IMG/VR virus record: IMGVR_UViG_3300045988_183163
Reading direction: 5' to 3' (one strand)
Source of the DNA: a virus
DNA: 64,000 bases
The notes beneath the pieces are model-generated. The model was not told where the DNA came from. It made no database searches and worked only from the letters and a program-made list of their open reading frames with translations. Numbering within the stretch: the first letter of the stretch is position 1; each line of letters begins with the position of its first letter. Positions 11,540 through 50,458 of this stretch are shown here, in pieces. The translations under genes and the position numbers were made by a program.

Positions 11540-12802
11540 TCACCTTCTTTCTGTAATATAATTTGTTGCGACTTCTAGTAGCCGCATTTTTTTGTAGGAC
11601 GCGCTATTAGAAACAACAGTACCGTCCAATTTTTTAAGAGCGAAGTATCCAGAAGTTCGTCTGCCTGTGATAAAGCATTCTGAGCCATTATAGGATACTT
11701 TGTCCCAAAGACGATAACCCTTTACGGTGTACGGAGCTTGATTAGCCTTGCGTATACCACCTTTTAGGATAGTTGCTTTGTGCAGCTGTCTGTTATGGTG
11801 GCGTATAGCCTTCGTGTAGTAGCAAGTATCGCAAGGTATGGCCAATGGGTTCTTGCTAATGCAGCGTGCATCGTTGGTGTGACTTTTAGGAATACTATGC
11901 TTCTCACGCAAGTACTTGGTTATGTAGCCATAAGTCCCTTGTACCGGAATCTTCAGCTCTTTAAGCAAGCGTTCCATAAGTGTCTTACGCATAACCCCCA
12001 TAAAAGCTGCATCTTTGAGAGACCTGCCACGTTTTTTGCCGTCAAGTGTTACTTTTCCAGCGTGTAGAGCTTTATGGCAAGCTGTGCATAGCGTGATAAG
12101 GTTGTTTGGCGCATTGCCACCTGTTCTACGGGTCTCGATATGATGCACATGCAGCTTTACAGCTTTTGTTTTTGTTGGATGCGCACCGCAGCATTGGCAC
12201 GTATAATTGTCACGCTTTAACACATACTGGCGTACATTGTACTCATCGTACATTTCACCAAGCTGATAGTCTGTGCCTACCGGCAGAGGTTTACCTTCCA
12301 GCATTGCTTTTAGACGTTGTGTGTCAAACTCTGCTGTTTCTACTCTGACGAACGTAACAGGCAAAATACGACATACTCGCTTGATAAGCGTAATGTGTTC
12401 TTGAATCTTGACCTCCACTGATGGCGCTAACCAGCCCTTATGCTTGCTATGCACTCTGTTGTTGAAACGCGGCGCACGGTAACGGGTTTTGCGGTTTCGC
12501 CTGCTGCGTCTGAAAGCACGGCGTGCAGAAAGCAAATCAACCACATCATTGCGTGGAGTTGCCTCTTCGCAATAGAGTTCGTACTTTTCAGTGGCAGCAG
12601 ATATGCCAATATGTTTGCTGCCTGCATCTACGCCCAAAGTAATAGGTTGTTTGTATCCTGTACTTCCATACAGGAGCTTGATTGTAAACGGTGTGCGTTT
12701 TACAACGCATGCTTTCTTCTGCTTTAACAATAAGCGAGCCTTGCGTGGAGAGCACGGCATCAAAGGTTCGCCGTGTTTGTTAAGCACATACACATATTGC
12801 AT
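11540..12802 (-). CDS. iscB: IscB, OMEGA RNA-guided nuclease (PLMP, split RuvC, HNH domains)
   Basis: PLMP motif HGEPLMPCSPRKARLL; RuvC-I LGVDAGSKHIG; Arg-rich bridge helix RRAFRRSRRNRKTRYR; RuvC-II VRVETAEFD; HNH CQCCG...HHIE...NLITLCTACH; RuvC-III SHTNDARC. 420 aa; RBS AAGGAG. Confidence 0.8.
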   Translation of the reverse strand: MQYVYVLNKHGEPLMPCSPRKARLLLKQKKACVVKRTPFTIKLLYGSTGYKQPITLGVDAGSKHIGISAATEKYELYCEEATPRNDVVDLLSARRAFRRSRRNRKTRYRAPRFNNRVHSKHKGWLAPSVEVKIQEHITLIKRVCRILPVTFVRVETAEFDTQRLKAMLEGKPLPVGTDYQLGEMYDEYNVRQYVLKRDNYTCQCCGAHPTKTKAVKLHVHHIETRRTGGNAPNNLITLCTACHKALHAGKVTLDGKKRGRSLKDAAFMGVMRKTLMERLLKELKIPVQGTYGYITKYLREKHSIPKSHTNDARCISKNPLAIPCDTCYYTKAIRHHNRQLHKATILKGGIRKANQAPYTVKGYRLWDKVSYNGSECFITGRRTSGYFALKKLDGTVVSNSASYKKMRLLEVATNYITERR

Positions 12803-13091
12803 GATACCATGCTCCTTTCTATTTGTGTGACAGCTAATGATAAGCTGTCCTCTCCTCCGAAGAGGAGTTACTTCCGAAGAAGCTAATCCTTCCCCAAAGT
12901 TATAAGCGGTTTAATGCAGCCACACCTGTTGTCTTTACCTCAGATTTCTTTGATGTGTTGCCTTAGAGCGTGCAGTTAGGATTAACGCCGCACGGTAACT
13001 ATCTATTCGCTTATAACGGAGTGCTCGAAGCACTTAGGGTAGTCAACATATCCTTTCGGACATTTCTAAAGCGTAGACTCGCTGATGCAAG
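12803..13091 (-). ncRNA. candidate omega-RNA of IscB (located 5' of iscB up to the LE hairpin)
   Basis: 290 nt with no ORF between the LE hairpin and the iscB start. It contains several GC-rich stems (for example GGAAGTAACTCCTCTTCGGAGGAG). The position matches the known IscB omega-RNA layout. Confidence 0.4.
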
Positions 13092-13111
13092 CCCGCGACT
13101 TTAGTCGTGGG

Positions 13112-13597
13112 TTATTGACGGGAATCAGCTTTCCTGAAATCAGAAAGTTGATTCTCAGTGGAACACTGCACGAAAGGAATTCCCGTGCGCGAATTCACAA
13201 AAACGTCTGTGGTAGCAAACGCATTGCCAAAACTCATGTCACAGAAAACGACGTGAGAACTTTCGTCACCAGATGCACGGGGCGCAAAGCTGGTACATGC
13301 AAACCAATCCAATTCATCCTGCCCCTGTTCATCATAAAGATAAATGACGGGAGCCGGAATGTTGGGCGTCGGCATAGCCAGTGAGCCAACCTGCATTTCA
13401 TTGACACAGAGGTCAATGGGCGGGTTCCCGTTCTGATAATCCCATTTGGGGTATGACTGAGCCCTGATGGTGGTGTCGCCATCATCTACCTCGATGCCAA
13501 GAGCAGCGATATCGAATGGAATACCGAGCTTTTCCTTGATTTCTTCCGGGGTGAAAGTTAGGAGCTTACCGTGTTCGCCTTGGATGTAGAGTCTCAT
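13112..13597 (-). CDS. hypothetical protein
   Basis: 161-aa ORF. Confidence 0.5.
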   Translation of the reverse strand: MRLYIQGEHGKLLTFTPEEIKEKLGIPFDIAALGIEVDDGDTTIRAQSYPKWDYQNGNPPIDLCVNEMQVGSLAMPTPNIPAPVIYLYDEQGQDELDWFACTSFAPRASGDESSHVVFCDMSFGNAFATTDVFVNSRTGIPFVQCSTENQLSDFRKADSRQ

Positions 13598-28658: not shown

Positions 28659-29792
28659 TTAGTGGATGCCCAGGGAAGCGGCATAAGCAGCTTCACGAGC
28701 GGCAACCTGTGCCTGCAGAGCAGCGATGGAAGCGGCATAAGCGGCTTCACGCTTTTCAGCAGCAGCCTGAGCTTCAGAGGTAGAAGCGTACTGGGGCTCG
28801 TTGCCAGCCAGAGTACCAGCATAGCCCTTGACGCCATCAGCGCCCTTAACAGTCAGGACTTCATGACCACAATGGTCACAGACGTAAACGTTACCCTTGC
28901 GGGTCCAGTTGTGATAGCCACAGCTGGTACAGACGGTGTACTCATTGCCCCAGGTGCCATTGGCAATAGCGGCGGCAATTTCACCGTGCTCAGAGACTTC
29001 AACGTTCTTGCGAGGAGCGGTCGGAGTAGTGGTGGTAGTACCGTTGCCCTTGTTGGAGCCGGTAGAAGTGTTGTCCTTACCGGTGTTGTCCTTATCGGGG
29101 GCCACTACGTCGCCCTTGTCATCGGGAGTGGTGGTGCCGTTGTCACCGGTATTGTCACCAGTGTTGTCGTCCTTATCGTCGGGTTTGGTAACATCACCCT
29201 TGTCATCGCCCTTGTTGTCATCCTTGCCGTCGTCGGGAGTGGATGCAGAAGTGGCTTTCAGGGTCAGGACGTTGTCGTGGATGTCGTCGCCCAGGTAGTA
29301 GAACAGGCGGTCATGGTTCAGGCTCTTGCTGGATGCGGTGTAAGTATCACCGGAATCCGTGGTCCAGGCTTCAACACTCTGACCATCAACACTGCCCGGG
29401 AAAGTGGCGGTGTCAGTCTCGGTCAGCACCGTGTTGCCGTCAATCTGGTAGTTGATGGTGATGGAACGCGGATTGCCCTCAGCCGCATAGCAGGAAGTGA
29501 TGCCGTCAGCGGTGAACCACTGGTCAACTGCATCGTACGGCAGAGTGTCGCCGGGATAGTAGTTGTAGGTATACCCGCCATGGCCTTGCAGGGTAATCCA
29601 GTAGCCGTAGTCATACTGACTTGCCGGGAACGTCATAGAGCCGCCCGGAGCCAGGTCCTGGGAAGAACCATTGCTGAAAGAGAAATGGTAGGTGTCACCG
29701 GTGGCTGCGAACGCTGCGACAGGCAGACAAGTTGCCATCATACCGGCTGCTGCAATCCCTGCGATTGCTTTCATGATTTTCTGATTGCTCAT
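28659..29792 (-). CDS. secreted Asp/Gly/Thr-rich protein with a C-terminal zinc-ribbon
   Basis: Signal peptide MSNQKIMKAIAGIAAAGMMATCLPVAAFA; low-complexity DDKGD repeats; CTSCG...CDHCGHEV zinc-ribbon. The antisense 388-aa ORF is rejected. Confidence 0.55.
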   Translation of the reverse strand: MSNQKIMKAIAGIAAAGMMATCLPVAAFAATGDTYHFSFSNGSSQDLAPGGSMTFPASQYDYGYWITLQGHGGYTYNYYPGDTLPYDAVDQWFTADGITSCYAAEGNPRSITINYQIDGNTVLTETDTATFPGSVDGQSVEAWTTDSGDTYTASSKSLNHDRLFYYLGDDIHDNVLTLKATSASTPDDGKDDNKGDDKGDVTKPDDKDDNTGDNTGDNGTTTPDDKGDVVAPDKDNTGKDNTSTGSNKGNGTTTTTPTAPRKNVEVSEHGEIAAAIANGTWGNEYTVCTSCGYHNWTRKGNVYVCDHCGHEVLTVKGADGVKGYAGTLAGNEPQYASTSEAQAAAEKREAAYAASIAALQAQVAAREAAYAASLGIH

Positions 29793-29894
29793 GCTGTGTA
29801 CTCCTTTGTTCTTTTAATTTTTTTATGATTATCTATCTGCATTTATTCAGATACCGATTTAAGGAGAAATCAGCCGCAGCTTTGCTGCGTTGCC

Positions 29895-29935
29895 CACCAT
29901 CCGCCGCGTGGAGGCTTTCTCATGGATGGTTGACG
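29895..29935 (-). promoter_or_regulatory. structured motif copy 1 (stem CCATCC/GGATGG around AGCCTCCACGCGGC, then TGGGCAAC)
   Basis: One of three copies with compensatory stem changes; it lies in the leader of gene 28659..29792. Confidence 0.4.
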
Positions 29936-30154
29936 AAGCAGATATGTGCTTCGCCAGTGCCGCAACCGTCTTCGCCACTCGACACAATTTCGGTTTGAAT
30001 TTATCCCCGTAAAATCGCATGTCCATGCTGCGCGGAGAGGATAAAATTCTTCGTGGTATGGTTTCGGAGTTCCGCGCCTGATTGGCCGTACTACACGCAA
30101 TGCAGTACAATACCCCAGATACCTTTGGCGGAAGGAAGCGAAAGGGTGTCTGGA

Positions 30155-30230
30155 TGGAGAAGGGAGATGGCCTCGAACCATCGATACCCTGCTTTGCGGC
30201 AGGTGCTTTATCCAGCTAAGCTATCCCTCC
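30155..30230 (-). tRNA. tRNA-Cys(GCA)-like with a 6-nt anticodon loop CGCAAA (U33 absent)
   Basis: Acceptor GGAGGGA/UCCCUUC, U73 (typical of Cys), D arm GCUU-AGCUGGAUAA-AGC, T arm GAUGG-UUCGAGG-CCAUC, anticodon stem CCUGC/GCAGG. Confidence 0.45.
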
Positions 30231-30260
30231 ATGATGGCGGGTCAAGCCCGCCAAATAGCG

Positions 30261-30644
30261 TTACGCAAACTGGAAGTCGCCGTACTGAGTCACGGCGCGT
30301 TCCAGGCGCAGAGGAATGGTTTTTGTGCTCTTCTGAGTGATGTCCTCGCGTGCTACCTGAGCTTCACTCACGCCAGCCGCCTGCAGGACTTCATACAGAT
30401 TGGAAGGACCAGTACCAGCATAACCACAGGTCAAGCCATTAACCTGAAGCGTGAAGCCGTGCAGATGCGGTGCCAAACCGGGAACGAAATCGAGTTCAAC
30501 AATGACCTCGTCGCTCTTGTCGTTTACACGGTTGACAGCGATGGCGCGGATGTTCCGGTTGCCAAACATTTCAATCAGCTTTTTTGCCGCTGCAGCGGTT
30601 TCTATGGTAGTCGTACCTTCAACATTGATAATTGCCTGTTCCAT
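30261..30644 (-). CDS. hypothetical protein
   Basis: Start at MEQAIINVEG (RBS AGGAAGGAG). The longer ORF-track version runs through tRNA-Thr and is rejected. Confidence 0.45.
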   Translation of the reverse strand: MEQAIINVEGTTTIETAAAAKKLIEMFGNRNIRAIAVNRVNDKSDEVIVELDFVPGLAPHLHGFTLQVNGLTCGYAGTGPSNLYEVLQAAGVSEAQVAREDITQKSTKTIPLRLERAVTQYGDFQFA

Positions 30645-30685
30645 AGAATTCATCTCCTTCCTATTATCGCTTAATTTGGTGATGG

Positions 30686-30758
30686 GGCTTGATGGCAGGT
30701 TCGAACTGCCGACCTGCGCGTTACGAATGCGCTGCTCTACCAACTGAGCTAATCGAGC
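30686..30758 (-). tRNA. tRNA-Thr(CGU)
   Basis: Anticodon arm GCGCA-UUCGUAA-UGCGC; D arm GCUC-AGUUGGUAG-AGC; T arm GGCAG-UUCGAAC-CUGCC; no CCA encoded. Confidence 0.7.
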
Positions 30759-31030
30759 ACGATAGGGTGTTTTATGCTGGTCACCCCTTGAGCGAGAAGC
30801 CAACTCGCATCCAGCACCATTCGGCAGCCACGCCGATAGATTCTGTATTGTACCCTCTTCACCGTTTTCCGGTCTTATTCGCGACTAACACCGGGACTTT
30901 CGAATACTTTCAGGCACAGCACCTGTTTGTCTATTATTTTTGAGGCTGTCTCATCGACATTCGGACAGCGGACCACAAGTGGACCATGCTCACCAAGTTT
31001 AACGTCGTGGCGTACGGTGACTGCGACGTG

Positions 31031-31105
31031 TGGAGCAAGTAGCGGGGGTCGAACCCGCGTCTCCGCCTTGGAGGGGCGGAGTATTAGCCGTTATACGATA
31101 CCTGC
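31031..31105 (-). tRNA. tRNA-Gly(UCC) with C33 (loop CCUCCAA)
   Basis: D arm GUAU-AACGGCUA-AUAC as in E. coli Gly(UCC); anticodon arm CCGCC-CCUCCAA-GGCGG; U73; CCA. Confidence 0.6.
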
Positions 31106-31581
31106 ATAAGATTGCGGGTGAACCCTCACTTAGCCCCGCCATGACATCCGTTTAGTAGGTCGTCATCCCCGGATGTCATCTTCACACCACCTGACAATCT
31201 TGCGAACCTCATCGTTGACGATACGCGAGAATCCAAGAAAGCGCTTGGGTGTTGGTCAACTTCAAATTTTGAGCCCTGTCGTTGATTCCCTGTCAAATCG
31301 GGTTAACGGTTGTCGTTGGGCTGTGTGTGAGACTGCAGCGAAACTTACCAGTTGCCGTGCAGCAATCTCGCCTTTACGGCTGTGTCGCGTCTGGATGCGC
31401 CCCGACTTGACGGGGATGCTCGTACGTTTGCATGCTTCTAAGACATTCGTCAGCAGCCGCAAGAGCCGCTGTCCGCCACCCGCCACGAGGAGGCCGCCTT
31501 AATGGGTGGCATGCTGTCCGCCAGATGTTGTGTATAGCATCGTATCATGTGATTTCGATACATCCAACGGATAGCGTCTGG

Positions 31582-31654
31582 AGCTGGAAATCGGACTTGA
31601 ACCGATGACCGACTGATTACAAATCAGTTGCTCTACCAGCTGAGCTAAACCAGC
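31582..31654 (-). tRNA. tRNA-Thr(UGU)
   Basis: Anticodon arm ACUGA-UUUGUAA-UCAGU; T arm AUCGG-UUCAAGU-CCGAU; two U-U mismatches at the base of the acceptor stem. Confidence 0.6.
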
Positions 31655-31696
31655 AAATACAAACATTAGCCAGATGCCCGGAACACGGAAACATCT

Positions 31697-31735
31697 GTTG
31701 CCCACCGTCCGCCGCGTGGAGGCTGTTTGCTTGGA
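31697..31735 (-). promoter_or_regulatory. structured motif copy 2 (stem CCGTCC/GGACGG around AGCCTCCACGCGGC, then TGGGCAAC)
   Basis: Lies immediately 5' of tRNA-Thr(UGU) on the minus strand. Confidence 0.4.
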
Positions 31736-32026
31736 CGGCTGGCGCGGAGTTACCCGCGCCAAATGGGAAATAAAGAGGTATGAAAGGAAGGATATTACTA
31801 TGAAACGGATGATTTTCACGCTTCACCTGTGTCAGCTCAAATGAAGCCATGCGACCAAGATTGGGGAAAGGAAAACCTTGATGTCTCAGGAGCCGTTCCT
31901 CTTCCTGAGAACAATTGTATTATACCATATATGTGGTATCCGGTCAATGAAAAGACACAATATATAGTGTCTAAATTGTAAACAAACATTAAGATACCAC
32001 TATATCTAGTGGTTGGGGCAAGCGCA

Positions 32027-34284: not shown

Positions 34285-35680
34285 ACATTGACACACTCCC
34301 ACGATTAAAATCGTGGGATTCTACTTCAACGAGGCCGCTGGCTGACCCAGTCTTACGCCTCTCGGTAACGGCATGGTGCCCCATCCGTGAGAGTATTTTT
34401 ACGCAGTGTAGCCCGTTTGAGTTAATCCCATACGGCATATATTGATAGCTGCATTGACGTCTCTTTCGTGGTGCGTGCCGCAAGATGGGCAATTCCACTG
34501 CCGCTGCTTGAGTGTGAGCTTCGGGTAGATGTACCCGCAGCGACTGCAGCACTTGCTGGATGGAGCGAAACGGTCAATTTTCACGACCTCCGTGCCACAG
34601 TTGGATGTTGTCCACTCAAGGATTTTGACAAACTCACCAAACGCTATATCATTGATTTTGCGTCCCCAGAGTTTTTGCATCCCTGCAAGATTTAAGTTTT
34701 CAATGCAGATGATAGCGTAATCCGCTATCAGTTGGTAAGCAACCTTAAAGAACCAATCGGTGCGTTGGTTACATATTTTTCGATAGATACGTTCCAACTC
34801 TTTAATTGCTTTCTTACGGTTATTACTTCCCGGCTTACAGCGTGAAATATGTCTTTGCACTCGCTGCAGCTCTTTCAGAGAGGCTTTATACCATTCAGGG
34901 GAATCTATCACGCTGCCGTCATCCAAGTTGAGGAAGTGCTTCAAGCCAAAATCCATCCCGACAGCTTTACCTGCTCGTGGAAGAATTTCATTACATTCCT
35001 CTTGGGTGACGACAAAGAGGTAGACATCACCTAAATTGTCGCGCTTGACGGTTAAGGTTTTCACTTTACCCTTCAAAGGACGAGAATCGAAATAGCGATA
35101 CTTCTTACCATTGATGGTGACGCTGCCTTTGCCGTCAAACTTATAGCCTGCCTGTTTGAGCGTGAAGCTTTTATACATCTCGCGCTTCTTAAATTTCGGC
35201 AGCGACTTCTTGGTAGGATGCGCCTTTTTCTTATTATCAAAATAGGCTTTATAGGCGCGGTCAACGCGCTCCACCACATCCTGAATAGCTTGGCTGCCAA
35301 GATTGTGCCAGTGACCCCACTTGCGGCGCTTGCAGATTTTAGCAATGTACTTTTTCAAATCATTGGCTTTAAGCGTTTTGCCATAGACCAAATAGTACAT
35401 ACGCCGCATAGCAATGCAAAAATTCCAAATCTCGGAGGCTATTTCTATCTGCTGAACAAGATACTTGTTCTTCTTGTTGTTATACAGTTTGTACTTGTAG
35501 GTTTTCATTACAAGACGAATGAGTAGTAGCCTCCTTTTCTTTAGAATCTACTATCTATGGTACGCAATTCGCACGCTTTGACAGCAAAAAATGCTGTCCA
35601 TCTTGCGGATATGCAGCGTGAATTGATTCGTTCTTAACGCCTTTCATCCCACGACTAAAGTCGTGGGTTTTCCCGGCTTG
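34285..35680 (-). mobile_element. IS200/IS605-like element carrying tnpB only
   Basis: LE hairpin CCCACGACTAAAGTCGTGGG at 35648..35667 and RE hairpin CCCACGATTAAAATCGTGGG at 34298..34317 flank an intact tnpB. Confidence 0.65.
34399..35508 (-). CDS. tnpB: TnpB (RuvC-like RNA-guided nuclease, IS605 OrfB family)
   Basis: 369 aa; N-terminus MKTYKYKLYNN; RuvC-I GMDFGLK; RuvC-II IICIENL; zinc finger CSRCG...CPSCG; RuvC-III HERDVNAAINI. Its omega-RNA is expected to overlap the 3' end and RE (about 34290..34520). Confidence 0.8.
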   Translation of the reverse strand: MKTYKYKLYNNKKNKYLVQQIEIASEIWNFCIAMRRMYYLVYGKTLKANDLKKYIAKICKRRKWGHWHNLGSQAIQDVVERVDRAYKAYFDNKKKAHPTKKSLPKFKKREMYKSFTLKQAGYKFDGKGSVTINGKKYRYFDSRPLKGKVKTLTVKRDNLGDVYLFVVTQEECNEILPRAGKAVGMDFGLKHFLNLDDGSVIDSPEWYKASLKELQRVQRHISRCKPGSNNRKKAIKELERIYRKICNQRTDWFFKVAYQLIADYAIICIENLNLAGMQKLWGRKINDIAFGEFVKILEWTTSNCGTEVVKIDRFAPSSKCCSRCGYIYPKLTLKQRQWNCPSCGTHHERDVNAAINICRMGLTQTGYTA

Positions 35681-45266: not shown

Positions 45267-45656
45267 TCACCATCCTCCACGACCAAGGCGAACCCACTCG
45301 GTTTTCGTGGTGTGCGAAGTATGATGAGCATATACTTCATATTGCAGCTTGCGCTCATACTCTGCTCTTGACGCTTGTTCTTCCTTCAGCTCCTTGACTG
45401 TGGCGAGCAGCTTATCTTCTCGACCTTCCGCTTCACCCTTGGCAAAAGCTGCTTTTTCGGCTTCTTCGATGCGCTGGTATCTGCTCTTTCGCTCTTTCTC
45501 GATGTAGAGTAACCCGTTGGCTACTGCATCAAGGAACGCTTGCATCTCAGATTCCGGGATAGGTTCTTGGCTTTCTCTGCTTTTGGATATACAGCAAAAG
45601 CCCTCATCGTCGTAATGGATGAAATAGGGTGAGTTCGGAACCTGTTGTACTCGCAT
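45267..45656 (-). CDS. hypothetical protein
   Basis: 129-aa ORF. Confidence 0.4.
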   Translation of the reverse strand: MRVQQVPNSPYFIHYDDEGFCCISKSRESQEPIPESEMQAFLDAVANGLLYIEKERKSRYQRIEEAEKAAFAKGEAEGREDKLLATVKELKEEQASRAEYERKLQYEVYAHHTSHTTKTEWVRLGRGGW

Positions 45657-45711
45657 AGGGCACTTCTTCCTTCCGTCTCAAAGACAATTTGCCGGGACTG
45701 TCTCCCGTTGC

Positions 45712-45745
45712 CCGCTGCTCGCCGCGTGGAGGCTGTCTTTTGGAG
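45712..45745 (-). promoter_or_regulatory. structured motif copy 3 (stem GCTGCTC/GAGCAGC around AGCCTCCACGCGGC, then GGGCAAC)
   Basis: Lies between the VWA gene stop and the next gene. Confidence 0.4.
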
Positions 45746-45775
45746 CAGCTGCGCGGACAAAACCGCGCTTTTGAG

Positions 45776-47470
45776 TTACATCTCTGCGTTAAACAGGTTG
45801 CGGAGCTTGTAGGTGATATCCTCGCTGTTGCCGACGATAGCTGCCGCTTCGTTGATGGAAGCGAGCTCCGAAAGACTATCCGCTGCGTAGTTGTAGCTGA
45901 TGGTGTAAATGGGGATATCCATACCGGCTATGATGTTCTTCGTATCGGAGAAGCCATATCCGGTATTGTTGTCACCGTCCGTGAGCACAAAGATGATGGG
46001 CGTGCAATTCCCACCCAGTTCCTGAGATTTCTGGTAGATGCGGTCCATAGCAACGCAAAGACCGTTGTACATTGCGGTGCTGCCGTTCGCATCGAGGGAG
46101 TTCACGGCACCCTTATACAGAGTTTTCTGGGTCAGAGAGAACTGGTTAATGGGCAGGTATTCCCTGACATCTGAATCAAAGCCAATGATGCCGATATAGT
46201 TGTCGTCATTGATATACTGGATGGTGTTTATCATCGCGGTTTTCAGGGCATTCAGGGGTTCGCCGCGCATCGAGCCGGAAGTATCGACAACGAACTCTGC
46301 CACAATAGGAATGCCTGAGTCCTTCTCTTCTTTCCAGACACTCTGAGCCTGTGCGATGGTGTTGCCATCGTATGCCTTGCCTGTATAAGCATAGTCGTCA
46401 AGACCATTGAATCCGTCCTTGGTCGCCTCTGCCTGGTTCTGAGCGCAGAAGGAAACGAAGGCAGCAATAACTTCCTTCTTCTCCGCAGAGACATTCCCGA
46501 TGGAATACAGAGGATTATCGTGCCGTACACCGAACGGGATGAACTCGTAGTTGCGCTGTAAGGTCGGGTCATTCTGATAAGACTGATACTCCATGACAAC
46601 GCCGTCCACGATGCCCTTGTCTGCCGACTGGACCATCTGCTGGGTCGTGAAGGATACGAGAGGGACGTTCGCTTGAAATTTCTGGAAATTCTCAACAGCA
46701 GCCGTATCGACAATCGTATCGCTGCCGCTGCTCGCAAGAGCCTCAAGCAGAAAATTAAGACCCGTAGCACTTGTGTAGGGGTTCGAGTATCCCATCATGA
46801 GTTTGCCATCGATGGTTGCGTTCAGAACGGAAGAAACAGACGCTTCACCGTATTCAGAGCGAAGCATATCCCCTGTCTTCTTTGATACGAGAATACCCGC
46901 CACATTGCCGACCAGACGGTCAGCCTCAACGGTCAATTCTACGCCCTCGTTCTTCACCAGCTCGCCAAAGAGCGTATTTGAGGGGGTATAGCACTCGGGC
47001 TGATACTTTCCCGTCGAGATGTACTCAGCCGCCGTACCGGACGGAATGGAGCGCAGGGAGACACTCATAGTCTTGTCTCCGGAAGTCTTGTTGTGCTGGG
47101 CGTTGAACTTCTTTGCCATTTCGGTCAGGAAAGAATCTGAGCCGGACTCTGCTGCTTTCTCGCCAGAGGAAAAGATTTCGATGTTCACATCTCCGTTTCC
47201 TACGACCACGAATGGGTAGGAGGATTCAATGTCGGGCAGTTCATCCTTTGCATCAAGGAATTCAGAGACATCCAGCTGCTGAGGATTGACCTTGACCTCC
47301 TGCACGCCGATGCGCTTCATCTTGCTGCTCAAGTTGGCATATGCCTGCTCGGACGTCATTGTACTAATGCTGACGTTTGAGTCCCTCATCACCGTCATCG
47401 AAAATACTCCGAGAACAACGCCTACCACAGCAATGGTTGCAACCACAGGGAAAATGTTCTTTTTTGTCAC
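45776..47470 (-). CDS. membrane-anchored protein with a periplasmic binding-protein-like region and C-terminal VWA domain
   Basis: N-terminal TM helix. The VWA MIDAS motif VVDTSGSMRGEP...GST...VLTDGDNN is clear. Confidence 0.65.
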   Translation of the reverse strand: MTKKNIFPVVATIAVVGVVLGVFSMTVMRDSNVSISTMTSEQAYANLSSKMKRIGVQEVKVNPQQLDVSEFLDAKDELPDIESSYPFVVVGNGDVNIEIFSSGEKAAESGSDSFLTEMAKKFNAQHNKTSGDKTMSVSLRSIPSGTAAEYISTGKYQPECYTPSNTLFGELVKNEGVELTVEADRLVGNVAGILVSKKTGDMLRSEYGEASVSSVLNATIDGKLMMGYSNPYTSATGLNFLLEALASSGSDTIVDTAAVENFQKFQANVPLVSFTTQQMVQSADKGIVDGVVMEYQSYQNDPTLQRNYEFIPFGVRHDNPLYSIGNVSAEKKEVIAAFVSFCAQNQAEATKDGFNGLDDYAYTGKAYDGNTIAQAQSVWKEEKDSGIPIVAEFVVDTSGSMRGEPLNALKTAMINTIQYINDDNYIGIIGFDSDVREYLPINQFSLTQKTLYKGAVNSLDANGSTAMYNGLCVAMDRIYQKSQELGGNCTPIIFVLTDGDNNTGYGFSDTKNIIAGMDIPIYTISYNYAADSLSELASINEAAAIVGNSEDITYKLRNLFNAEM

Positions 47471-48495: not shown

Positions 48496-50139
48496 TTAAT
48501 CTTTGGCCTTTTTGTCTTTCATGATAGCCTTCTCTTCTTCGGTCACATCCGGTCGAAAATGAGTGACTTCCTCACCGTTGAGACTCTTCTCATGAATTAG
48601 ATAGCCGCCTTCTACGCGTTCCATAGCATTGACACCTCCTTCCTTTTCACTATTCACAGGCTGTTCGCCTTGATTCATGATGTTGATGTTGCGGTCGGTC
48701 TTTGCCTGGATGCTGTTGGCACGGACAATTTCGCCCATGTCGATTCCGGTCGCTTCTTTCACCGTCTGCATGGTTTGAGCCATCAGGATAGGAACGTTCC
48801 CGGAAACGCCGGATACGCCGGAGGCGTCACCGCCAATGATAGAAACCTTATCAATGCTGGACAAAGGCTGAGCCACGCTTTTGGCAATGTCAGGAAGAAC
48901 CTTGATGAGCATTTCAGCCACAGCCGCATCGTTATACTGCTTATATGCCTCTGCTTTCTGTTTCATGGCTTCCGCTTCAGCCAAGCCTTTCTGACGAATC
49001 GCTTCAGCTTCTGCCTTACCGACAAGTTCAATGCCTTCTGCTTCCTGCTGCTTGGAGAACTTCTGTGCCTCAGCTGCACGTTCCGCCTCATATTTCTTGG
49101 CTTCTGCCTCTTTCTGGCGGCGGTACAGGTCAGCATCTGCCTGTTTGCGGACTTCCGCATCCAGTTTGCGTTGCTGGACCTCGGCTTCCTGTGCGGCAAG
49201 GTCTACCATTTTCTTCTGCTTGGCGATTTCAGCATCCGCTTCCGCTTCTTTGATTTCTTTGGCGCGGAGATTCATCTGAATCTGACCGGCAGCATCTGCG
49301 TCAGCCGCAGCTTTATCAGCTTCAGCTTTCAGCTTTGCCTTGGCGAGCTGCAATTCATTGTTGCGTTTTGCAATCGCAGTCTGCGCTTCAACTTCCTTGG
49401 CATTTGCAGCCATCTCAGCATCGGCCTTCGCGCAGGCTACATCACGGGCAGCCTGAGCACGGGCAATTTCAGCCTGTTTTTTCACAAGCTCTTCCTGTTC
49501 AATGCCGATAGCCTCAATGACGCCGTGGTTGTGGCCCTGAACATCCACCGCATCCCTGATATCCTGGACGTTAAAAGTCACGACCTCAAGTCCCATCTTA
49601 GCAAGGTCGGGGCGAGCATTCTCGATAACGCTCACAGCCATCTGCTTGCGGTTCGTCAGAATTTGGTCGACGGTCATGTCAGAGACAATCTCACGCAAAT
49701 TGCCCTGCAGAACGTCATTAACTTTCTCATTGATGCCCTGCTCGTTCATGCCCAGAAAGTTCGAGATGGCTGCCTGTTGGCGGGACATGATGTACGCCTT
49801 GGCGTCTTTCAGACCGGATGCCTTCACTTCTTCATCCAGAACGGTAGAGTTTTCGCTGTAGACTTGAATCGTGACAACAGAGTCAATCCAGAGACTTACG
49901 CCGTTCTTCGTCTTAACACCTGTTTCAGGAGTTTTGACGTCAATTTTCAGAAGGCGCATATTTAGCCGGTCAGCCCGCTGAAGAACGGGCAGAACAAATG
50001 TACCTTTTCCGCAAACTACTTTAGGCTTAGACAGACCAAAGCCGGTCACAACGATAGCCTCCGTGGGCGGAGCTTTCTTGTAGCAGAGAAATCCAAAGAG
50101 AATAATCAGGGCTGCCACAATCGCAATCACATATACCAT
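48496..50139 (-). CDS. flotillin-like SPFH/band-7 domain protein
   Basis: N-terminal TM helix, SPFH domain (VVTGFG...KIDVKTPE...), a long Ala/Glu-rich coiled coil, and a C-terminal flotillin-type region; 547 aa. Confidence 0.75.
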   Translation of the reverse strand: MVYVIAIVAALIILFGFLCYKKAPPTEAIVVTGFGLSKPKVVCGKGTFVLPVLQRADRLNMRLLKIDVKTPETGVKTKNGVSLWIDSVVTIQVYSENSTVLDEEVKASGLKDAKAYIMSRQQAAISNFLGMNEQGINEKVNDVLQGNLREIVSDMTVDQILTNRKQMAVSVIENARPDLAKMGLEVVTFNVQDIRDAVDVQGHNHGVIEAIGIEQEELVKKQAEIARAQAARDVACAKADAEMAANAKEVEAQTAIAKRNNELQLAKAKLKAEADKAAADADAAGQIQMNLRAKEIKEAEADAEIAKQKKMVDLAAQEAEVQQRKLDAEVRKQADADLYRRQKEAEAKKYEAERAAEAQKFSKQQEAEGIELVGKAEAEAIRQKGLAEAEAMKQKAEAYKQYNDAAVAEMLIKVLPDIAKSVAQPLSSIDKVSIIGGDASGVSGVSGNVPILMAQTMQTVKEATGIDMGEIVRANSIQAKTDRNINIMNQGEQPVNSEKEGGVNAMERVEGGYLIHEKSLNGEEVTHFRPDVTEEEKAIMKDKKAKD

Positions 50140-50403
50140 AATTTTTGTTTCTCCATTCGTAAAATAGTAATAAAACTATAAGTCAGGACTTGCGTCCTGT
50201 GGTCCACTTCGCCAATGTTATGCACTGTTTTAGCCTTTCGACATGACGCTCGCACTTCTCCTCCCCTCGGAGATGTTTAACGAAACGCCTGCAGAGCTCA
50301 CCACTTGTGGAGCATGGATAAGGTGCCTATATTATTAGTACACAACGTAGTTTTCCCCACTGCCGGAGCAATGGGCTTAGGCTAACCAACCGGGCTTACG
50401 GGT

Positions 50404-50458
50404 TGCCCCGCAAGCCCCGTCTATAACCGGCGAGCCGGTTTAGGCGGGGTTGTTGACA
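50404..50458. repeat. 55-bp inverted-repeat arm (partner at 63946..64000), including the last 6 codons of the lipoprotein gene and a GNRA-tetraloop hairpin
   Basis: 54/55 identity to the reverse complement of 63946..64000. It contains GGGCUUGCGGG-GCAA-CCCGUAAGCCC. Confidence 0.6.

Follow-up and report, generated by a model that had tools for sequence, protein, structure and literature searches.

A repeated structured motif in a 64-kb phage sequence is very probably the core of four hepatitis delta virus-like self-cleaving ribozymes

Self-cleaving ribozymes of the hepatitis delta virus (HDV)-like family cleave RNA 5' of their helix P1, leaving a 2',3'-cyclic phosphate and a 5'-hydroxyl (5'-OH) end. 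One such ribozyme of F. prausnitzii (drz-Fpra-1, Rfam family RF02682; Webb et al. 2009) resides upstream of glmM and has been suggested to take part in metabolite-dependent regulation, and processing of polycistronic mRNAs has been put forward as a role of ribozymes located between bacterial genes (PMC6765202). In gut phages, minimal HDV-like ribozymes, the theta ribozymes, self-cleave in vitro; theta ribozymes comprise about 55 nucleotides (nt), lack a P4 helix (GG-GTAACG-CTAA) and have about 6 nt between helix P1.1 and the catalytic cytosine, and those associated with tRNAs cleave within 5 nt on either side of the tRNA 3' end, while for 526 listed 'isolated' occurrences the function was left open (Kienbeck et al. 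2024, PMC10879173). Here, we analyzed a stretch of 64,000 nt of DNA from an uncultured phage of gut Clostridia (IMG/VR record IMGVR_UViG_3300045988_183163; "the window" hereafter refers to this whole stretch), which carries a short repeat on its minus strand. Judged by fold, conservation and covariation, this repeat is almost certainly the catalytic core of HDV-like (delta-fold) self-cleaving ribozymes, which are present in four copies of 67-81 nt, referred to as A, B, C and E.

A first-pass annotation of the window had described three minus-strand hairpins with differing but complementary arms around a constant loop, each followed by (T)GGGCAAC, and much of this description is borne out. The 14-mer AGCCTCCACGCGGC occurs exactly three times, always on the minus strand (29903-29916, 31711-31724 and 45721-45734), while three or more matches with at most two mismatches were obtained in 0 of 100 dinucleotide shuffles (mean 0.32). 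The arms read CCATCC/GGATGG, CCGTCC/GGACGG and GCTGCTC/GAGCAGC, followed by TGGGCAAC in the former two and by GGGCAAC in the third copy, and the copies had been placed correctly upstream of gene 28659-29792, whose product of 377 amino acids has a signal-peptide-like N-terminus, of tRNA-Thr(UGU) and of the open reading frame (ORF) 45267-45656. The number and the extent of the elements had to be revised. The fourth, divergent copy E was missed; it escaped the 14-mer because of its deviating L3 and tail sequences (Table 1). The arms are in fact 7 bp long, as an A or G at position +1 pairs with the T or C preceding GGGCAAC, and the 14-mer, although constant, does not make up the whole loop, since the arms enclose 21-22 nt. 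Moreover, each element extends well beyond the approximately 40 nt originally delimited, with a P4 hairpin, the catalytic cytosine and the 3' strand of P2 all located 3' of GGGCAAC.

The nested double pseudoknot P1-P2-P3-P1.1-P4 can be drawn with all five helices in all four copies, and it accounts for both the variable and the constant parts of the repeat. What had been read as the stem corresponds to helix P1, the first nucleotide of which lies at the predicted cleavage site, and the constant loop is composed of the last base of the P2 5' strand, P3 (GCC/GGC) and L3 (UCCACGC). P1.1 arises from pairing between the GG of GGGCAAC and the CC of L3; the remainder of GGGCAAC provides the junction into P4. 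P2 is formed between a purine-rich stretch 5' of the 14-mer and a segment 3' of P4. Following P4, the catalytic cytosine, which is present in all four copies, occupies the first position of J4/2 (GG-C-UAA, CUGA, CAAAU or CGAA) and is succeeded by the P2 3' strand. The first P1 pair is G.U in A, G-C in C and E, and A-U in B. Minimum-free-energy folds of A, B and C together with their upstream hairpins recover the hairpin, P1, P3 and P4.

In a scan against Rfam, copies C and A scored above the curated RF02682 threshold of 44 bits (Table 1), and the E-values of the two remaining copies were 5.8e-7 for B in a local search and 0.015 (whole window) or 8.8e-5 (local) for E. A covariance model built from phage sequences and run with the filters off recovered exactly these four copies in the window, with the next match at 13 bits. 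RF02682 is the closest known family. The window copies share fold and length class with drz-Fpra-1 and, like it, combine a 7-bp P1, a 3-bp P3, a 7-nt L3 of the form UCCNCGN, a GG for P1.1, the junction GCAAC, a short but real P4 and a J4/2 of C(U/A)AA leading into the P2 3' strand, and both belong to the lineage of gut Clostridia as hosts. In contrast to drz-Fpra-1, the copies are phage-borne, occur four times within 64 kb, are not located upstream of glmM and differ in the sequences of P1, P2 and P4. The core CAGCCUCCaCGC-GGCG...GGGCAAC also aligns almost base for base with the consensus of the HDV genomic ribozyme RF00094: the HDV core reads CAGCCUCCUCGCUGGCG..GGGCAAC and the window core CAGCCUCCACGC-GGCG..GGGCAAC, with the catalytic cytosine of J4/2 (GGCUAA) at the same place. 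However, the copies reach only 24-31 bits against RF00094 (threshold 50), their P4 is much shorter, and their setting is the transcript of a DNA phage rather than a rolling-circle RNA replicon.

The resemblance to theta ribozymes is similarly partial. The copies share the core (P3, U, CC, ACGY, P3', P1', GG), the sense orientation and the non-coding position, and the gene content of the window, its relatives and the matches of its helicase are in line with the gut Caudoviricetes of Bacteroidota or Bacillota hosts that carry theta ribozymes (PMC10879173). They differ in having 20-32 nt between P1.1 and the catalytic cytosine and P4 helices of 3-8 bp, and none of the predicted cuts abuts a tRNA 3' end, the nearest being that of E. 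On these features the copies are not theta ribozymes in the strict sense but correspond to the 'isolated' class listed in the same study; its supplementary tables, in the portion that was covered, did not contain the exact 13-mer of the core. Intergenic hammerhead and twister ribozymes of bacteria and prophages offer a parallel in position, as cleavage between cistrons into products of differing stability has been proposed for them, but they represent a different ribozyme class that cleaves internally (PMC6765202).

An exact scan of IMG/VR for GCCTCCACGCGGC-N7-GGGCAAC returned 106 loci, many of which are 94-99.6% identical to the tRNA island of the window. Parsing the window and these loci yielded 53 distinct ribozymes of seven paralogue types, four of which, A, B, C and E, occur in the window, and base pairs were counted on an alignment of 51 of the 53 variants. 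P1 is paired in 98.3% of the cases, with changes on both sides in 6 of its 7 pairs, P4 covaries in all four pairs counted, and P3 and P1.1 are invariant, as is the catalytic cytosine (51/51). Taken over all cells, 96.9% are paired, compared to 82.4% in shuffles, none of 500 of which reached the observed value, and to 29-68% in slid registers. P2 was tabulated separately because the length of J4/2 is variable; of its 18 strand combinations, 16 pair throughout, and one mismatch is present in each of the remaining two, both of which were encountered only once. Changes of this kind are also found within types, namely a compensatory C7-G to U7-A exchange in P1 among the relatives of B and, among the 12 variants of E from 62 loci, structure-neutral or compensatory changes in P2 (G/A alternating opposite U) and P4 (G-C to A-U). 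The relatives of the window are IMG/VR viral contigs. A megablast search with 4 kb against 50,697 phage records, directed at cultured relatives, gave tRNA-sized matches only. The best matches of the helicase are from Faecalibacterium phages, and its homology, at about 52% identity, indicates phages of Faecalibacterium and other Bacillota. One relative (IMGVR_UViG_3300045988_181558) harbors a chimeric ribozyme consisting of the 5' half of A and the 3' half of B with a non-complementary P2; compared to positions 29863-31739 of the window, a 1.8-kb deletion, which apparently arose by recombination across the identical ribozyme cores, removes the four intervening tRNA genes.

The functional RNA postulated by the first-pass annotation is hence retained as a structured minus-strand RNA with covarying stems around a conserved core, but not as a simple or protein-binding hairpin. 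That the element is just such a regulatory hairpin displaying an anti-Shine-Dalgarno-like CCUCC, or a repeat acting at the DNA level as a recombination or binding site, would be in keeping with stems covarying around a constant sequence and with the deletion that the repeated cores apparently mediated. We consider this extremely improbable, as the HDV-like core explains the constant part base for base, P2 and P4 covary although they lie outside the span first delimited, and the Rfam matches are significant. The anti-Shine-Dalgarno reading itself was rejected: the bases of CCUCC belong to P3 and L3, and P1.1 is formed by its two central C's together with the GG of GGGCAAC. A shared role of the copies, as originally assumed, is still probable, with RNA cleavage as the most likely one instead of ribosome or protein binding.

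The gene content of the window is of phage type and includes 17 tRNA genes; the tRNA island houses three of the four ribozymes. Each of the four is located between genes and, because nearly all genes between 1 and 51 kb are encoded on the minus strand, in sense orientation to the flanking genes. The coordinates of the ribozymes and their surrounding features are summarized in Table 1.

Table 1. Predicted ribozymes and associated features of the window.
Feature	Position	Strand	Characteristics
Ribozyme A (31.7 kb copy)	31659..31739	-	RF02682 50.0 bits; own model R1 75.5 bits; P1 GCCGTCC/GGACGGT (G1.U); P2 GCAAACA/TGTTTGT; P3 GCC/GGC; L3 TCCACGC; P1.1 CC/GG; long P4; J4/2 CTAA; predicted cleavage 31740/31739
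Hairpin upstream of A	31740..31761	-	TGGCGCGGG-taac-TCCGCGCCA; -16.2 kcal/mol
Sigma-70-like promoter	31919..31947	-	TTGACC-17-TATAAT, extended-10 TG; 11/12 matches; consensus scan only
tRNA-Thr(UGU)	31579..31654	-	CCA encoded; ribozyme A 4 nt upstream; cleavage site of ribozyme E 68 nt downstream
Ribozyme E (fourth copy)	31439..31510	-	RF02682 34.1 bits; P1 GCCACCC/GGGTGGC; P2 TAAGGCG/TGTCTTA; L3 TCCTCGT; tail GGACAGC; 8-bp P4; J4/2 CGAA; predicted cleavage 31511/31510
Ribozyme B (29.9 kb copy)	29864..29930	-	Rfam match 29863-29930; RF02682 41.7 bits; P1 ACCATCC/GGATGGT (A1-U); P2 GAGAAA/TTTCTC; P4 GCAGC-aaa-GCTGC; J4/2 CTGA; predicted cleavage 29931/29930
Hairpin upstream of B	29931..29956	-	TGGCGAAGCA-catatc-TGCTTCGTCA; -13.9 kcal/mol
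Ribozyme C (45.7 kb copy)	45680..45749	-	RF02682 60.4 bits; P1 GCTGCTC/GAGCAGC; P2 AAAGACA/TGTCTTT; P4 CGGGA-gacag-TCCCG; J4/2 CAAAT; predicted cleavage 45750/45749
Hairpin upstream of C	45751..45768	-	GCGCGG-ttttgt-CCGCGC; 1 nt before cleavage site
Conserved structured non-coding module	29931..30154	-	Between tRNA-like gene 30155-30230 and ribozyme B, which would make its 3' end

Most copies in the window are preceded by a structured element. Three of the four predicted cuts (A, B and C) are located 0-1 nt after a stable hairpin. At A and B the last nucleotide of the hairpin directly adjoins the cleavage site; the hairpin of A retains its pairing as G.U in a relative that carries the variant GGCGTGG, and that of B covaries across phage groups. 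At C, the stop codon of a VWA gene (45776-45778) is followed by 7 nt, the hairpin, 1 nt, the ribozyme and 23 nt containing GGAAGGAAG before the ATG at 45656. An interpretation of these three hairpins as intrinsic terminators was rejected, as a scan of the minus strand gave no call and the transcribed strand lacks a T-run at each of them, including A; at C, a T-run follows only when the plus strand is read. Each of the three is directly followed by P1 of the ribozyme instead.

A second, looser scan of IMG/VR brought the set to 114 distinct ribozymes with 48 different P1 strands in 46 distinct contexts. The cut is preceded by a tRNA 3' end, as published for theta ribozymes, in six of these contexts and, in 28 of the 40 others, by a stable hairpin, defined as a hairpin with a folding free energy of -8 kcal/mol or lower that ends within 3 nt of the cut; neither was found in 12. 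By comparison, such a hairpin is present at 16% of random positions in the same loci (binomial p ~4e-14). The ribozyme core was further identified in 26 contigs of bacterial genomes or metagenome-assembled genomes (MAGs), mostly from Ruminococcus, Acutalibacteraceae, Oscillospiraceae and other Clostridia, where 21 of 22 fully parsed ribozymes have a GC-rich, terminator-like hairpin right at the cut. Many Clostridia MAGs share the P1 sequence GCCGCAC/GTGCGGC or one that differs little from it. In one Acutalibacteraceae and one Ruminococcus MAG (loci L206:4750-4900 and L216:4270-4460), the order is stop codon, hairpin, ribozyme and next gene; the upstream genes encode giant repeat-rich surface proteins of 1398-1571 amino acids, and downstream there is a glycosyltransferase-like gene, in the Ruminococcus MAG after an intervening small gene. 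The hairpin-at-the-cut rule is not mentioned in the theta ribozyme paper or in the full-text literature searched, a coverage that leaves out most subscription journals, and we do not claim priority for it.

Our preferred explanation, which we take as a whole to be probable, is that the four ribozymes cut the long transcripts of the phage into pieces; to the role proposed for this, constitutive segmentation of read-through transcripts that leaves upstream RNAs with hairpin-protected ends, we assign a probability of roughly one half. Each copy would cut its own transcript just 5' of P1 during transcription, and read-through RNA would thereby be divided into separate molecules while transcription itself continues. 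The RNA upstream of the cut would carry the 2',3'-cyclic phosphate and end in a hairpin, or in a tRNA in other phages, equivalent to a terminator-like 3' end that is shielded from 3' exonucleases, while the downstream product would begin with a 5'-OH and the folded ribozyme. Ribozyme A ends 4 nt before tRNA-Thr(UGU), a spacing that is kept in 44 of 45 related loci, and the start predicted from the sigma-70-like promoter, which is itself preceded by a terminator-like hairpin (31953-31972), lies about 170 nt upstream of its cleavage site. Ribozyme A would thus trim a leader of about 170 nt and become the 5' leader of pre-tRNA-Thr, to be removed later by RNase P; ribozyme E would cut the same transcript beyond the tRNA, so that both together would release a fragment of about 229 nt. 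Ribozyme B would free a conserved structured non-coding RNA and start the mRNA of the secreted protein, and ribozyme C would part the VWA-protein mRNA from the next cistron.

A function as described for theta ribozymes, that is, maturation of tRNA 3' ends by removal of the trailer, might be expected in a phage with this many tRNA genes, with three ribozymes in the tRNA island, E downstream of tRNA-Thr(UGU) and the same ribozyme class positioned exactly at tRNA 3' ends in other phages. None of the cleavage sites in the window is, however, within 5 nt of a tRNA 3' end: E cleaves well past a tRNA that already encodes its CCA, A is situated upstream of its tRNA, and B and C are found beside protein genes. 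A connection with stop-codon recoding, which many theta ribozymes are reported to have, was likewise discarded, as no suppressor tRNA is predicted and the long ORFs are normal in the standard code (code 11). We therefore regard trailer removal as improbable for these copies. Little probability is likewise given to ligand-controlled switches that would regulate the downstream genes, comparable to glmS or to the F. prausnitzii HDV-like ribozyme, which glucosamine-6-phosphate modulates. The closest Rfam family is represented by that very ribozyme upstream of glmM, and the copies do lie in 5' leaders; yet they precede unrelated genes and a tRNA, and P4 and the junctions, the possible aptamer sites, are short and variable, with no extra conserved domain.

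The hairpins resemble stems of intrinsic terminators without a T-run, which would also suit a torpedo-type terminator, in which the 5'-OH end created behind a hairpin without a U-tract lets the 5'-3' exonuclease RNase J dislodge RNA polymerase. Such a mechanism seems very improbable to us, as genes or tRNAs follow within 4-70 nt that have their own ribosome-binding sites but, except upstream of A, no recognizable promoters of their own. In addition, the delta fold buries nucleotide +1 in P1, which would make it a poor entry site for an exonuclease.

As the main alternative, the upstream hairpin may serve as a folding insulator that prevents mispairing of the ribozyme with its 5' flank, with selection acting on the downstream RNA, which would obtain a compact, nuclease-resistant 5'-OH ribozyme cap and a defined 5' untranslated region (UTR). 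Folding of the HDV ribozyme is reportedly sensitive to upstream sequence and helped by an upstream hairpin, as Chadalavada et al. are said to have found in 2000. Synthetic ribozyme insulators provide a parallel, and the positions of the copies fit as well: B precedes the ATG of gene 28659-29792 by about 70 nt and C a start codon by about 24 nt, both with ribosome-binding sites, and A and at least four other ribozyme types lie 4-8 nt upstream of tRNAs. Altogether, ribozymes ending 4-8 nt before a tRNA were found in five distinct contexts (tRNA-Thr, tRNA-Met, tRNA-Asn and twice tRNA-Ser). On the other hand, the downstream partner varies between mRNA, tRNA and nothing recognizable, whereas what stays constant is the structured element at the cut, and the published arrangement with a tRNA at the cut indicates that the upstream product is the one selected. 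We thus take the insulator to be possible but rather unlikely as the explanation; insulation and end protection are not mutually exclusive, and both are compatible with the same data.

Several points weigh against our interpretation. With regard to the identity of the elements, B and E score below the curated RF02682 threshold, and B has A1-U at the cleavage site instead of the canonical G1.U, which may nevertheless be a natural variant because it recurs in 7 of 46 independent contexts. In addition, the covariation is mostly between paralogues and phage groups and not within one orthologue, because the orthologues are 94-99.6% identical. With regard to the role, phylogenetic independence does not hold for all contexts entering the hairpin statistic, the hairpin upstream of E is weak in this phage (-3.2 kcal/mol), and the hairpins, whose stabilizing role we infer, could equally be folding insulators. 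Moreover, 5'-OH ends can destabilize RNA in Firmicutes, as in the case of the glmS ribozyme and RNase J1 in Bacillus. Finally, no RNA-end-healing enzyme (RNA ligase, CCA-adding enzyme or kinase-phosphatase) was found by Pfam among about 30 ORFs of the window, beyond which the genome extends.

The RNA that ribozyme B would release is a conserved module of about 225 nt without a match to any Rfam family. It comprises several helices, the terminal one being the hairpin upstream of B, and 14 of 52 predicted pairs show compensatory changes (RNAalifold). In divergent phages, homologues are found upstream of other ribozyme types (L119:4527-4750, L127:3065-3294 and L131:2083-2310). Indels in the module are not multiples of three. 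In other phages it follows tRNA-Ala(UGC), and tRNA-Ser(UGA) comes 6-8 nt after its ribozyme, while in the window the 377-amino-acid secreted-protein gene intervenes. The adjacent tRNA-like gene (30155-30230, minus strand) has a full cloverleaf, an encoded CCA and a 6-nt anticodon loop (CGCAAA), for which ARAGORN gives an 'anticodon' of 2 nt. The gene is found conserved in 37 related loci, and other phages have tRNA-Ala(UGC) in its place; it represents a degenerate tRNA or else a 5' domain of the neighboring module that resembles a tRNA. A loose descriptor had suggested a fifth ribozyme at 30070-30153, 2 nt after the CCA of the tRNA-like gene. This candidate was rejected: it was not scored by a permissive Rfam search or by our own covariance model with the filters off, the descriptor gives 2-11 chance matches per shuffled window, L3 is atypical, and in other phages the same stretch aligns within a different conserved structured RNA.

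In the leader upstream of ribozyme A (31740-31912, minus strand), a hairpin of 7 bp (CTCAGGA...TCCTGAG) lies close to the predicted 5' end and a GC hairpin at the 3' end. The sole ORF running through the leader (31617-31850) lacks a ribosome-binding site and runs into the ribozyme, and the leader may be a small RNA released by ribozyme A. Between tRNA-Thr(CGU) and the tRNA-like gene there is a small ORF of about 130 amino acids (30261-30650, minus strand; MNSMEQAIINVEG...). In this area, the spacers of the tRNA island reach an unusual length of about 270-450 nt, and additional non-coding RNAs may be present in them. Elsewhere, the window contains two RNAs of the HEARO family, which serve IscB nucleases as guide RNAs, with scores exceeding the Rfam threshold (12879-13119 and 50197-50457, both minus strand). 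The former immediately precedes an IscB-type ORF that encodes RRXRR and HNH domains (11540-12802), and the latter is upstream of an SPFH/flotillin-like gene (48496-50139), with no IscB adjacent among the ORFs scanned. A TnpB-like ORF (34399-35508, minus strand) with OrfB_IS605 and Cas12f-like TNB domains lies inside the phage gene array; with it, the window has two types of RNA-guided nuclease or transposon-associated genes.

Taken together, an anonymous repeat becomes four predicted RNA cleavage sites, and the coexistence of variable stems with a constant "loop" is explained. The RNA is of a known kind with a modestly new regularity of context, the hairpin at the cut, and adds phage examples to those HDV-like ribozymes that are not associated with tRNAs and whose function the literature has left open. 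It also offers a rule for testing, namely that a stable hairpin or a tRNA immediately precedes the cut. Tentatively, and at somewhat less than even odds, it might be speculated that hairpin and HDV-like ribozyme form a general two-part 3'-end module of Clostridia and their phages that does not terminate transcription. If so, a terminator-like hairpin that has lost its U-tract would be combined with a ribozyme cutting 0-3 nt after the stem, the upstream RNA would be released with a protected end while RNA polymerase runs on into the next gene or tRNA, and theta ribozymes as published, which cut at a tRNA acceptor stem, would represent one particular instance of this rule. In the window, the module would set the 3' end of the RNA at 29931-30154 and give tRNAs ribozyme leaders. 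In gene calling and in the modeling of operons and UTRs of such phages, these sites should be taken as boundaries of transcripts, and the compact units of hairpin and ribozyme have man-made counterparts in the insulator parts of synthetic biology. If the rule is true, these ribozymes would have a simple role in shaping the transcripts of phages and of Clostridia.

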